Shown here: positions 28,101-31,100 of the stretch, piece after piece
Layout of the letters: every line of letters begins with the position of its first letter
How positions within the stretch are numbered: position 1 is the stretch's first letter
Position numbers: made by a program
NCBI RefSeq assembly: GCF_003334305.1
Contig: NZ_QOWS01000001.1
DNA from: Escherichia coli
GTDB lineage: Bacteria; Pseudomonadota; Gammaproteobacteria; Enterobacterales; Enterobacteriaceae
DNA length: 64,000 nucleotides
Reading direction: 5' to 3' (one strand)

Positions 28101-31100
28101 GGCGTCCCGTTGAACCGGCACGGAACAGAACTAAATCACCCGTACGCAAATTACTGCGGGAAACAGATTTACCCATTTCCTGCTGTTCGTAAGTCGAACG
28201 CGGAAGTTCTAAGCCAAATTGCTCACGGAATGTACGCTGTACGAAACCAGAACAATCGATACCTTTTTTAGTGCTGCCGCCCAGACGATAACGTACGCCT
28301 TTCCAGTCAGCATACTGATCCATAATTCGCGATTTTACGTCGACATTACGAACCAGGTTTTCAAATTCATCCTGAGAAGCTTGCAGTGATGATGTTTCAC
28401 TACCCACTGCACGTGTCTCAGGATGCATATTCTTTGCGGTGTTATTTGCACTACATGCAGAAAGCAGAACCGCTACTGCAATCGCGGGAATCCCGCGCAA
28501 GATATATCTCAAAATCGGTTGAGATTTGACCATGTTGTTTGTTTTCCCTTGAAGTCCTTAACGACAAATATCGTTATAAAAAAATGCCAAGCGACACGAG
28601 ACTAATTACCTGGGCATGTTGAAACAATTCCTTAAGGCCAAATCTGTGGACTAACGCACAAAATTATATGCTGTGAGGATAATCTACCGCCGAGGCAAAA
28701 CGAGTTCGAGATTACCCGATTGGTGCGGTCTTGGCGAGCGGTTTTACATGATTTTTTATAAGAAAAAGTGATACAGAAAGTTAATAAGCGGGATTGGTCA
28801 ATTAAAGTACGATTGAGTGAAACGCATGCAATCCATTCATTTACTTAGAGAATGATTTTTGCGCGCGATGGATGAAAGCACGGTGCGCATCATCAGGATT
28901 ATCCTCACTATAAAAATAAGCCTGATGATGTTAATTACTGTGAGTTATTTGTTTTGGAAATGTTTGTTTTTTCCCGGTAGTGATTTGTCAAAAAAGGTGA
29001 TTAATCGATCACTTAATGGCGTCAGCAACACCCAGGGCAAACCGATCAATATCACGGTCATCGAACCGACAATGATGTCAGTAAACCAGTGTGCGCCAAT
29101 CATTACTCTGGGAAATGCAAAAACCACAAAAATAATAAGGGCGATAAGGCCTGCAACTTTGCCGAAATAACGCCACATGAATGCCGAAAAAATAAGCAGC
29201 ATCATGCCGTGATCGCCGGGAAAGCTATCTCGTGAGGCATCTTTCGTGGGAACAGAGAGCAGTTCGCTGACGCGGTTAATATCGGTAAAAGTCAATGTTG
29301 GGCTGGCCCGTTTTACAGGAATTAATGCCTGACCCAGCTGGTTTAATACCACTGCAGTTAATAGCATGACCAGACCCATAATCACGATACGTCGTCTGCC
29401 AGGGGCGTTTTCTTTCAGCCAGAAACTCAGCATCAACATTCCCATCGCCAGCAGAGAACAACCGTCGAAAGCGCGATTGTTGGTCAATGCAACCAGCCAC
29501 AAAAAGGCCTTACTTTCGACCAGTTTCTGATTAAAGAAATAAAAAATATCCGCATCAATCGGCAACCAGAATCCATGATTAACGGGAATATACCAGGAAA
29601 GAAACAGCGCGAGGCCGACAATATTCAACAACACTATTTGCGGCAAATTTTTAATCATATTTTCTCTAATTATCTTACTGAAAAACGCAGGCAACCTTAC
29701 GCGGTAGTCGCTAAACGAAGCTTCAACAGCGCGCTCTGCAAAGCATTCCAGTCAGCTTCGCTGCTGGAAATCAGCTCAATACGGCTGTCCGGTGGCGCAA
29801 CGTTTTGCGTTTCAATGTGCAGGTCATCGCCCTGACGGTTGATTCGTACCAGCCCTTCGGGAATACGCAGCACGCCTTTGACGCGTTCCACCGGTGCAAG
29901 TCGCGCCCATTCCAGAATGCCAATGGTGTCGAATACCGTATCAGCGTCGAATATCCAGCCGCAGGCCTGATATCCTTGCCCGCTGTTCAGACTGCGACGC
30001 CAGCGTTGATGCTCTGGCAGGCTTAACGCTGCTAACCCTTTTTTCACGACATGCTGATGAGAATGCGCGGCGCTGGCGGGCAACTCGGCTAAATTGCGAC
30101 GCGGCAAATCCAGAAGATGACCGTCAACTTTCCCATGCTCACTGTGAATTAATTGTCGATCGCCACCATTTTGCTGCCACCAACGCTGTAGCGCTTGCTC
30201 ACTTTCGGGCGTCGCACGGTCGGATTTATTGGCGACAATGATGTCTGCGGCAGCCAGCTGGTCACGGAAGTTTTCATTGCTGGCGCTTTTTTCGTCCAGC
30301 AGCAAGCGCGGATCGAGAATGCACAAGGTGGCGCGCAGATCTATCCACGGTTCATAGACTGGTGCGGTTAACAGATCGAGGATCTGTTTCGGATGGCCCA
30401 GCCCGGTCGGCTCTATCAACAAGCGGTCTGGTTTTCCCTGACGCAGTAAGGTATTCAACCCTACCTGCATGGGTAAACCATTAACGCAGCACATGCAGCC
30501 GCCGGGGATCTCTTTCAGCAATGCGCCGCTATCGGCGAGCAAAGCACCATCAATTCCGACTTCCCCAAATTCATTAACCAGTACCGCCCATTTTTCGTTG
30601 GGATCTTTATGGGCTAACAGATGAAGAATCGACGTGGTTTTCCCGCTGCCGAGAAAACCGGTGATGAGGTTGGTCCTGGTCACAACGGCTCCGCAATACT
30701 CTGGTAAGTTAACTGAGCGTTAATCCTGGCTAAAAAAGGCAGAAAAGAGAAGGGGAGAGCGGACGAAGGTGAGCTTCATCCGCTTTAACCGCAGAAATCG
30801 TTAAATTTTGAGGGTGTTTAATAGCGCCTGATGTGCGCCGAATTGTACGATTTGTTGCCAGGCTTGTTCGATGGCCTGCACAAAATGCGGGTTATCTGGC
30901 AGATCATCACCGAAAACTTCACGCAGGGAAAGCAGGGCGGTTACGCGTTGTTCACTGCTGCTGCCCGCAACAAGTTCGCGAATTTTATCGCTAAGCGGAT
31001 CGCGAACATCAATGGCATTTCCGGCATCATCAACGCCGCTGACGTAACGCATCCAGCCAGCAACGCCTAATGCCAGCAACGACCAGTCCGTTTCGCACCC

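Follow-up and report, generated by a model that had tools for sequence, protein, structure and literature searches.

The 411-bp lpxT-mepS spacer of Escherichia coli as a probable compound mepS regulatory region

Introduction

The product of mepS is a cell-wall hydrolase that opens the sacculus for growth and is subject to proteolytic control by NlpI-Prc. Upstream of the gene, on the side of lpxT, lies a stretch of several hundred base pairs without convincing coding signal, which raises the question of what such a long region contains. An initial annotation of the window, by which we mean the complete 64,000-nt stretch of E. coli DNA under analysis (contig NZ_QOWS01000001.1), suggested that this region might contain a long 5′ UTR, regulatory sites or an unannotated small RNA. 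Here, we combine published transcription start site (TSS) and Term-seq data with folding analysis and a comparison across Enterobacteriaceae to explain this interval.

Results

A conserved non-coding spacer

The lpxT-mepS spacer covers exactly 411 bp on the minus strand of the window (28534-28944; Table 1), and the long non-coding gap described in the initial annotation was confirmed, as the longest ORFs located fully within it encode 32 aa on the plus strand (28673-28771) and 23 aa on the minus strand. The only ORF in the annotation track, 103 aa long (28859-29170, plus strand), is indeed mostly antisense to lpxT, and the spacer is AT-rich as stated, with a GC content of 39.4% compared to 51.2% in the whole window. 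Of the roughly 42 gaps found within 50 kb of K-12 sequence around the locus, only psuK-fruA (422 bp) is longer than this spacer, whose length may fairly be called unusual but not extreme.

No feature is annotated between lpxT (end 2269567) and mepS (start 2269979) in the RefSeq entry of K-12 (NC_000913.3). Window and K-12 spacer differ by six substitutions, all in the distal part, and by no indel, so that K-12 coordinates can be transferred exactly. The spacer sequence was found in all 5,426 of 5,426 complete E. coli genomes, and a lpxT-mepS spacing of 405-445 bp is kept in 79 of 80 Enterobacteriaceae species. Searching the spacer against Rfam gave no match, even at E = 10; at permissive thresholds only chance matches to eukaryotic miRNAs and snoRNAs appeared, located outside the gap or at its edge.

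For the conservation footprint E. coli served as reference and 77 non-Escherichia loci of the Enterobacteriaceae as comparison set. Identity to E. coli amounts to 82-99% in the promoter hexamers, the CRP site and the leader, compared to 0.54-0.62 in the promoter spacers and 42% at third codon positions of lpxT. Two conserved stretches, AAATGAAT-N4-TTGC (28842-28827) and the invariant TTCTTATAAAAAAT, are only partly explained by the promoter and leader model described below.

Table 1. Features of the lpxT-mepS interval, ordered from lpxT to mepS (window coordinates).
Feature	Position	Strand	Details
lpxT stop codon	28947-28945	minus	
lpxT 3′ hairpin (terminator or 3′-end-protecting stem-loop)	28888..28930	minus	folding and Term-seq
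Decayed Pho-box-like direct repeat CTTTCATCCATCGCGCGC	28861..28878	minus	9/14 consensus positions
Conserved block / candidate promoter P3	28750..28785 (36 bp)	minus	-10 TATCAC 28773-28768; predicted TSS ~28761; 228-nt leader
Promoter P2	28701..28737	minus	-35 TCGCCA 28737-28732; 17-nt spacer; -10 TAATCT 28714-28709; TSS 28702/28701
CRP site TGTGCGTTAGTCCACA	28645..28660	minus	genomic SELEX (in vitro)
Promoter P1	28592..28627	minus	-35 TTGTTT 28627-28622 and -10 TAGTCT 28604-28599 (both putative); TSS G 28592
Leader hairpin UAACGAU-AUUU-GUCGUUA	28559..28576	minus	MFE and centroid folds
OxyS pairing site GACTTCAAGGG	28546..28556	minus	overlaps Shine-Dalgarno AAGGGA (28550-28545); C(-18) = 28551
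Term-seq RNA 3′ ends, uncharacterised leader fragments	28537..28539	minus	4 and 6 nt before mepS ATG
mepS ATG	28533-28531	minus	

Nested promoters upstream of mepS

P1 and P2 combine mapped 5′ ends with -10 and -35 elements at correct spacing that are conserved above background, as expected for sigma-70 promoters. P2 gives rise to the “long” mepS mRNA with a leader of 168-169 nt: a TSS of spr at -169 (nine 454 reads) is listed in the supplement of Mendoza-Vargas (2009) together with the -35 element CGCTCGCCA, the -10 element GGTAATCT and a 17-nt spacer, and the OxyS site is numbered G146-G156 in the long mepS mRNA (Elgrably-Weiss, 2024, RNA). The orthologous promoter of Salmonella is P1241 with a 166-nt UTR (Ramachandran et al., 2012, BMC Genomics), and the two P2 hexamers show identities of 0.87 and 0.93 compared to 0.54 in the spacer between them. 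The “short” mRNA with its 59-nt leader originates from P1, for which a TSS was mapped at -59 by 5′RACE (“Gcttggcattt”; Mendoza-Vargas, 2009) and, in a second study, at 2267942 (188 reads, 59-nt UTR; Kim, 2012); in Salmonella, P1 corresponds to P1242, whose UTR measures 57 nt (Ramachandran et al., 2012). The hexamers of P1, TTGTTT-17-TAGTCT, were assigned by reading the sequence and reach identities of 0.85 and 0.96, with 0.62 in the spacer.

Further upstream, the block at 28785-28750 has a mean identity to E. coli of 0.83 over the 77 loci, rising to 0.92 in its -10 hexamer. The promoter string of a third start detected by dRNA-seq in Salmonella SL1344 (P1243, 226-nt UTR), which ends in TTCACTTTTTGTATCATAAATTCT, aligns to this block (Ramachandran et al., 2012). 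We infer from this Salmonella TSS that P3 may be used in E. coli too; the E. coli TSS sets of Mendoza-Vargas (2009) and Kim (2012) list no start near 28761. The block also covers positions -50 to -85 of P2 and may double as an upstream element of that promoter, being either A/T-rich and UP-like or an activator region. Inspection by eye for LexA, IHF, Fis, DnaA, RcsB or half-CRP sites gave no fit in the block, for which the Salmonella TSS is the better explanation.

In the account given by Elgrably-Weiss (2024), growing cells use mainly P2 and stationary-phase cells mainly P1. The same study found that translation is 5.6-fold lower with the long leader, which also gives the OxyS site partial shielding. 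In Salmonella, ppGpp represses P1 and P2 and activates P3 (P1243 reads: 21 in the wild type and 2 in ppGpp0; Ramachandran et al., 2012). A lone mepS promoter close to the start codon, the counter-case considered in the initial annotation, is not what the published TSS maps show. The long 5′ UTR suggested there is correct and already documented, with E. coli transcripts starting at -169 and -59 and an additional Salmonella start at -226.

A CRP site between P1 and P2

A genomic SELEX study that names spr as a new CRP target lists a bound 16-mer for the lpxT>-->spr spacer (about 2.26788 Mb; Shimada, 2011). This 16-mer is identical to window positions 28660-28645, and its sequence TGTGC-GTTAGT-CCACA matches TGTGA-N6-TCACA in 8 of the 10 core positions. 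Mean identity of the site is 0.82, with a nearly invariant TGTGCG...CCACA core. With its centre at -60.5 from the start of P1 and at +49 from that of P2, the site is arranged such that CRP, which bound it in vitro, may activate P1.

The shared leader and its OxyS site

Nucleotides 25-35 of OxyS (CCCTTGAAGTC, taken from the K-12 oxyS gene) are complementary to the mepS site at 11 of 11 positions, and the site begins at nucleotide 37 of the short mepS mRNA, as published. Repression of mepS by base pairing with OxyS was demonstrated by a compensatory test combining mepS C(-18)G with OxyS C18G G30C (Elgrably-Weiss, 2024). The site has an identity of 0.99 across genera and is directly preceded on its 5′ side by a conserved leader hairpin, in which only the closing pair varies (U-A in 11, U-G in 4 and C-G in 3 of 21 genera), whereas the remaining pairs are invariant. 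Published TSSs, P2 hexamers, OxyS-site numbering and the 11-nt complementarity could all be reproduced on the window sequence. The regulatory sites envisaged in the initial annotation are likewise real and already documented, namely the CRP site from SELEX and the OxyS pairing site.

Apart from the lpxT end, the only Term-seq 3′ ends reported in the gap precede the mepS ATG by 4 and 6 nt (Adams, 2021, supplement; K-12 2269975 and 2269973 on the plus strand, class “upstream ORF -4”, “No” in what appears to be the column for Rho dependence). Their detection in two conditions would be compatible with an independent or leader-derived sRNA, for example a 55-nt fragment reaching from the P1 start to -4 that sponges OxyS by means of its perfectly conserved complementary site. 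We regard such an RNA as very improbable, because neither a hairpin nor a U tract precedes the two ends, which are more simply explained as decay or processing intermediates beside the ribosome-binding site, and because no Rfam family matches at E = 10. The stability of the leader folds is also within the range of shuffled sequences (z = -1.45 for 258 nt and z = -1.05 for 89 nt), and the sole terminator-like match within the gap, a 5-bp stem at 28719-28701, falls on the -10 element and start of P2. An RNA of this type has not been reported in the literature searched. With no Rfam match, no internal terminator and all mapped starts feeding mepS, the small RNA option of the initial annotation is not supported, in contrast to the other two.

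The extreme conservation of the final 60-100 nt before the ATG, the two GGA motifs flanking the OxyS site (28558-28556 and 28548-28545) and the reduced translation from the long leader could also indicate a riboswitch-like element or attenuator responding to a ligand or to a protein, for instance CsrA. This seems very unlikely to us: beyond the Rfam result and folding energies within shuffle expectation, the consensus fold shows almost no covariation (double changes in 4 of 37 pairs, covariation term -0.16 kcal/mol), and the upstream TTAAGGA copy reads AAAGA in most genera. The CsrA interpretation of the repeated ATTTGnCnTTAAGGAnTT motif was rejected for the same reason, as its upstream copy is without GGA in most genera.

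A Pho-box-like repeat decayed in Escherichia

The distal part of the spacer contains a direct repeat that is much better preserved outside Escherichia. At the aligned position at least 11 of 14 matches to CTGTCATNNNNCTGTCAY are found in about 55 of 80 other species, including nine perfect loci, and the background frequency of at least 11/14 matches is 4e-5 per position. Most other genera carry CTGTCAT-N4-CTGTCAY about 342 bp upstream of mepS; the repeat is kept in Citrobacter, Enterobacter, Klebsiella, Kosakonia, Kluyvera, Leclercia and others, and half-decayed in Salmonella (11/14). The window retains CTTTCAT-CCAT-CGCGCGC with 9/14 positions and other Escherichia loci 8-9/14, which falls short of a Pho box. 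Three of the six substitutions between window and K-12 are located within this relic, for which a function in E. coli is improbable.

An active fourth promoter in the distal third (28887-28786), either the relic Pho-type element or a TTAACA-16-TATAGT sequence at 28934-28907, appears very doubtful for E. coli. The latter is the sole match of the sigma-70 scan (10 of 12 positions), but shuffled sequences yield more (mean 3.6 compared to 1), and it is Escherichia-specific and situated inside the lpxT hairpin. Downstream of the relic box, E. coli retains a conserved TAAGTAAATGAATGGATTGC segment, which would favour residual activity; against this stand the low match of the box itself and the lack of any TSS near -300 or -367 in the E. 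coli sets of Mendoza-Vargas (2009) and Kim (2012). Furthermore, the PhoB ChIP-seq paper is silent on the locus in its main text. Consensus scans for sigma-70 promoters and terminators, which returned one promoter-like match in the lpxT hairpin and weak 5-bp “terminators”, are uninformative alone.

Neither mepS nor lpxT appears in the main texts of the papers on PhoB ChIP-seq in E. coli and on phosphate starvation in Salmonella, and a literature search for mepS in connection with PhoB or phosphate starvation, non-OxyS RIL-seq partners or other transcriptional regulators retrieved nothing relevant.

The 3′ end of lpxT

Immediately downstream of lpxT the RNA can fold into a hairpin with 15-nt arms of 93% complementarity and an MFE of -20.7 kcal/mol (z = -4.59; none of 200 shuffled sequences was equally stable). 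Term-seq located an RNA 3′ end at K-12 2269627, corresponding to window position 28885, 3 nt downstream of the hairpin (Adams, 2021). Hairpins of other sequence with -14 to -27 kcal/mol occupy the same place in 19 of 20 other genera examined, many followed by a U tract, and the consensus of 77 species is CATCAGGGATCG-TTTT-CGATCCCTGATG followed by ATTTTTT. The E. coli tail CGCACCGU contains one U in eight positions and thus no U tract, although the stable hairpin and the RNA 3′ end are present; the 3′ end may therefore reflect inefficient termination or exonuclease trimming to the stem.

A small protein, for which the 18-aa frame MMRTVLSSIARKNHSLSK (28893-28837, minus strand) with directly readable tandem ATGs and a GAGGA Shine-Dalgarno sequence 8 nt upstream would be an example, can practically be discounted, as the start codons and Shine-Dalgarno sequence sit within the lpxT hairpin, the ORF covers the least conserved part of the gap (identity 0.30-0.35), the E. 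albertii frame differs and stops after 12 codons, conservation in the gap is without the 3-nt periodicity seen in lpxT, and no mapped TSS lies upstream except for lpxT read-through.

Discussion

Taken together, the interval is very probably a compound mepS regulatory region combined with the 3′ end of lpxT. It is an already known region, an ordinary multi-promoter leader with two, probably three, published mepS promoters, and no independent sRNA gene, conserved small ORF or unusually stable leader fold was found in the spacer. In the arrangement we propose, the lpxT RNA would end at the stable hairpin about 60 nt beyond the stop codon, followed by about 100 nt of fast-evolving DNA, in which most other Enterobacteriaceae appear to carry a Pho-box-type promoter that has decayed in Escherichia. 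Transcription of mepS itself then starts from three nested sigma-70-type promoters, namely a putative P3 with a leader of about 228 nt, as suggested by Salmonella, P2 with 169 nt and P1 with 59 nt. The CRP site occupies a class-I-like position for P1 and is at the same time internal to the P2/P3 leader, and all mepS transcripts share the nearly invariant 59-nt leader, whose ribosome-binding site is the pairing target of OxyS. The spacer very probably owes its length to the 3′ end of an upstream gene stacked on nested promoters and a regulated leader common to them, and not to an undiscovered gene.

On top of proteolytic control by NlpI-Prc, mepS appears to be wired to growth phase (P1/P2), ppGpp (shown in Salmonella), probably cAMP-CRP, and oxidative stress via OxyS. 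The only possibly new aspect, and a side point here, is the Pho-box-like repeat of most relatives, which Escherichia has lost. With a little less than even confidence, we consider the ancestral spacer as a four-input control region with a putative PhoB-dependent promoter as outermost element, of which the window would hold only a relic. Should this promoter work, expression of the main elongation endopeptidase would go up under phosphate starvation in most enteric genera, with E. coli as an exception; a link between phosphate starvation and mepS is absent from the literature searched.

The individual parts resemble known systems to different degrees. As in Rho-independent terminators, a GC-containing hairpin directly follows the lpxT stop codon and an RNA 3′ end lies at its base, but the U tract is missing in E. 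coli and present in the cross-genus consensus. PhoB-dependent promoters such as those of pstS and phoA have the Pho box CTGTCATAWAWCTGTCAY in place of the -35 element. The repeats of the other genera share with them two 7-bp direct repeats with 11-bp periodicity facing mepS and a TAnAAA(T) -10-like hexamer 10-12 nt further downstream; they differ in that the 4-nt spacer is pyrimidine-rich (TCTC, CTTC) instead of A/T-rich, and the window keeps just 9 of the 14 positions. The CRP site resembles that of class I promoters, e.g., lac P1 (centre -61.5), in its TGTGn-N6-nCACA motif about 60 bp upstream of the TSS of P1, which is the stronger promoter in stationary phase, although with its centre at -60.5 it is 1 bp off the canonical position and is additionally part of the transcribed P2/P3 leader. 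The published mepS P1/P2 region with its OxyS-targeted leader (Mendoza-Vargas, 2009; Elgrably-Weiss, 2024) is the identical locus, without difference in the proximal 170 nt; the distal 240 nt are not discussed in these two studies. Finally, apart from the -10 hexamer of the third promoter, which is TATCAT in Salmonella and TATCAC in E. coli and thus lacks the terminal T, the region corresponds to the Salmonella Typhimurium spr promoters P1241, P1242 and P1243: the orthologues of P2 and P1 align base for base, and the third TSS falls into the most conserved upstream block.

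Coding content of the lpxT-mepS region

The region between lpxT and the cell-wall hydrolase gene mepS (spr) comprises 411 bp (28534-28944), as the table positions of the lpxT stop and the mepS start define it. In line with the initial annotation of a long, AT-rich non-coding region upstream of mepS, its GC content is 39.4% compared with 51.2% for the whole window, the largest ORFs fully within it encode 32 aa on the plus and 23 aa on the minus strand, and RefSeq annotates zero features in K-12 (NC_000913.3) between the end of lpxT (2269567) and the start of mepS (2269979). The ORF described there as antisense to lpxT, a 103-aa frame on the plus strand (28859-29170), is indeed mostly so. 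Ranking second in length among ~42 gaps in the 50 kb around it in K-12, the region is long but not exceptional. A 701-nt query across it found matches in 5,426 of 5,426 complete E. coli genomes, many at 100% identity. As window and K-12 differ over the gap by six substitutions (28920, 28870, 28865, 28864, 28811 and 28793) and no indels, a window position w converts exactly to K-12 v3 = 2269979 + (28533 - w).

Promoters and regulatory sites of mepS

Two promoters, P1 and P2, have been described for mepS (Elgrably-Weiss 2024). The P2 start at -169 has a -35 element CGCTCGCCA and a -10 element GGTAATCT with a 17-nt spacer, and the P1 start at -59 was determined by 5'RACE and given as 'Gcttggcattt...' (both Mendoza-Vargas 2009, supplement); a TSS at 2267942 (v2 numbering), supported by 188 reads and giving a UTR of 59 nt, was also reported (Kim 2012). 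Activity of P2 is higher in exponential phase, that of P1 in stationary phase (Elgrably-Weiss 2024, citing Thomason 2015).

The palindrome TGTGCGTTAGTCCACA (28660-28645), first spotted by eye, is identical to the CRP 16-mer found by genomic SELEX in Shimada 2011, where the site is listed for the lpxT>-->spr spacer and spr is counted among the new targets of CRP. The site is centered at +49 of the P2 transcript; seen from the P1 start, its center is at -60.5, which is class-I-like. cAMP-CRP may activate P1, which would fit the stronger P1 in stationary phase.

The small RNA OxyS represses mepS by pairing of its nt 25-35 with the ribosome-binding region, and repression is regained when C(-18) carries a compensatory mutation; translation of the long mRNA is 5.6-fold lower, and its OxyS site is partly hidden (Elgrably-Weiss 2024). 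When we derived the pairing again with the oxyS sequence of K-12, CCCTTGAAGTC was located at OxyS nt 25 and the target at nt 37 in the short mRNA, in agreement with the publication. Predicted unpaired probabilities in the short versus the long leader are 0.50 versus 0.37 for the OxyS site and 0.82 versus 0.62 for the SD-AUG stretch, and these modeled accessibilities agree qualitatively with Elgrably-Weiss 2024. Term-seq 3' ends at 28537-28539, found in two conditions, imply leader fragments bearing the OxyS-complementary site.

We took mepS loci from 80 Enterobacteriaceae species and aligned them. lpxT lies upstream of mepS in 79 of these, with a spacing of 405-445 bp throughout. Read from this alignment, the identity pattern over the gap is a classic promoter footprint (see table), and the 3-nt periodicity of conservation present in lpxT is absent within the gap.

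Features of the lpxT-mepS region and their mean identity to E. coli over 77 non-Escherichia loci
Feature	Window position	Strand	Basis	Identity
lpxT third codon positions (neutral yardstick)				0.42
lpxT stop TAA	28947-28945	minus	sequence	
Distal gap	28930-28861			0.30-0.55
36-bp block	28785-28750			0.83
P2 -35 / -10				0.87 / 0.93
P2 spacer				0.54
P2 TSS	28702/28701	minus	published position mapped onto window	
TGTG...CACA palindrome				0.82
P1 -35 / -10				0.85 / 0.96
P1 spacer				0.62
P1 TSS	28592	minus	published position mapped onto window	
mepS leader, final 59 nt 5' of ATG				0.89
OxyS site GACTTCAAGGG	28556-28546	minus	published pairing mapped onto window	0.99
C(-18) of mepS	28551	minus	published position mapped onto window	
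mepS start ATG	28533-28531	minus	sequence	

The initial annotation had proposed a long 5' UTR, regulatory sites or a small RNA. The first two are borne out by the published TSSs and the CRP and OxyS sites. A riboswitch-like structured leader would be expected to fold stably, but the z-scores are only -1.45 and -1.05, and the consensus fold is practically free of covariation except at the pair closing the small leader hairpin at 28576-28559 (U-A in 11 genera, U-G in four, C-G in three). An independent sRNA gene is not supported: Rfam gave no match even at E = 10, the gap has no internal terminator, and the 3' ends other than that of lpxT lie only 4-6 nt 5' of the mepS ATG with no structure before them. 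A small protein from an 18-aa ORF with a GAGGA SD is very unlikely, as this frame sits inside the lpxT hairpin, in the least conserved stretch, and is not retained in E. albertii.

A putative third promoter

The E. coli promoter papers on mepS make no mention of the most conserved upstream block of the gap, the 36-bp block with consensus TTCACTTTCTGTATCACAATTTCTTATAAAAAAT. In Salmonella SL1344, dRNA-seq revealed three spr TSSs (Ramachandran 2012): P1241 (UTR 166 nt; reads 18 in wild type, 87 in ppGpp0) and P1242 (57 nt; 38 and 610), which equal E. coli P2 and P1 and are ppGpp-repressed, and the ppGpp-activated P1243 (226 nt; 21 and 2), which would equal a further promoter, P3. The P1243 promoter string ...TTCACTTTTTGTATCATAAATTCT aligns with the block; in the window this puts a -10 element, TATCAC, at 28773-28768 and predicts initiation at ~28761 (leader 228 nt), and we infer that P3 is used in E. 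coli as well. The A/T-rich block also spans -50 to -85 of P2 and may double as an UP-like or activator region of P2; such dual use would explain its conservation.

A Pho-box-like repeat lost in Escherichia

In most genera the stretch from the lpxT hairpin to the P3 block contains CTGTCAT-N4-CTGTCAY oriented towards mepS, a Pho-box pattern by the established consensus of PhoB promoters. It lies at -340 to -347 from the mepS ATG (about -347 to -324 in loci numbered with the ATG at 2501), corresponds to window 28878-28861 in the alignment, and is followed after 10-12 nt by a -10-like hexamer TAnAAA(T). At this fixed position ~55 of 80 loci match at least 11 of 14 consensus positions, nine of them all 14, at a background frequency of 4e-5 per position for at least 11; none of 810,580 background positions scored at least 13. 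In the relatives the element is a plausible candidate PhoB-dependent promoter. The S. enterica site scores 11/14 and the four Escherichia sequences 8-9/14; judged by these matches, the repeat is lost in Escherichia, and three of the six differences between window and K-12 fall within the remnant. The lpxT-mepS locus does not appear in the main text of the E. coli PhoB ChIP-seq paper, and the searchable literature contained no link of mepS to PhoB or phosphate starvation; therefore, we regard the window element as a decayed remnant. On its 3' side, most genera, E. coli among them, conserve AAATGAAT-N4-TTGC (28827-28842).

RNA structures flanking the promoter region

A 43-nt hairpin (28930-28888) lies 15 nt beyond the lpxT stop (-20.7 kcal/mol, z = -4.59, 0 of 200 shuffles equally stable), and a Term-seq 3' end at K-12 2269627 (Adams 2021) corresponds to window 28885, 3 nt beyond its stem. 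Hairpins of differing sequence (-14 to -27 kcal/mol) occupy the same place in 19 of 20 other genera folded; a scan of this position in Leclercia found none (-0.3 kcal/mol). Across 77 species the consensus sequence is that of a canonical terminator, CATCAGGGATCG-TTTT-CGATCCCTGATG followed by ATTTTTT. Since the E. coli hairpin has no U tract, some read-through from lpxT into mepS is possible. A perfect 12-nt inverted repeat, GTGAGGATAATC / GATTATCCTCAC (28673-28684 and 28897-28908, 212 nt apart), has one copy in this hairpin and the other in the P2 leader, at nt +18 to +29. By rough estimate ~0.02 such pairs are expected by chance per 600-nt region; as E. albertii lacks the copy on the lpxT side, the repeat is chance or Escherichia-specific.

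Within mepS, a hairpin ATCTCAA-CCGATT-TTGAGAT (28506-28525, codons 3-10) is nearly invariant between genera. Third positions of codons 1-40 are 0.71 identical versus 0.42 in lpxT, which suggests that the part encoding the signal peptide is constrained at the RNA level. A strong long hairpin on the minus strand (28363-28430, TTCATCCTGAGAAGC...GTGTCTCAGGATGCA) attracts spurious Rfam miRNA matches; an abundant internal Term-seq 3' end (K-12 2270136, window 28376, +157 of the ORF) lies on its 3' side. The canonical intrinsic terminator of mepS (27896-27921, minus strand; 11-bp stem GAAAGCACTGC-TTAG-GCAGTGCTTT, then a T run) agrees with the Term-seq 3' end at K-12 2270620.

As a published explanation exists for essentially every conserved element of the gap, we consider the finding already known.
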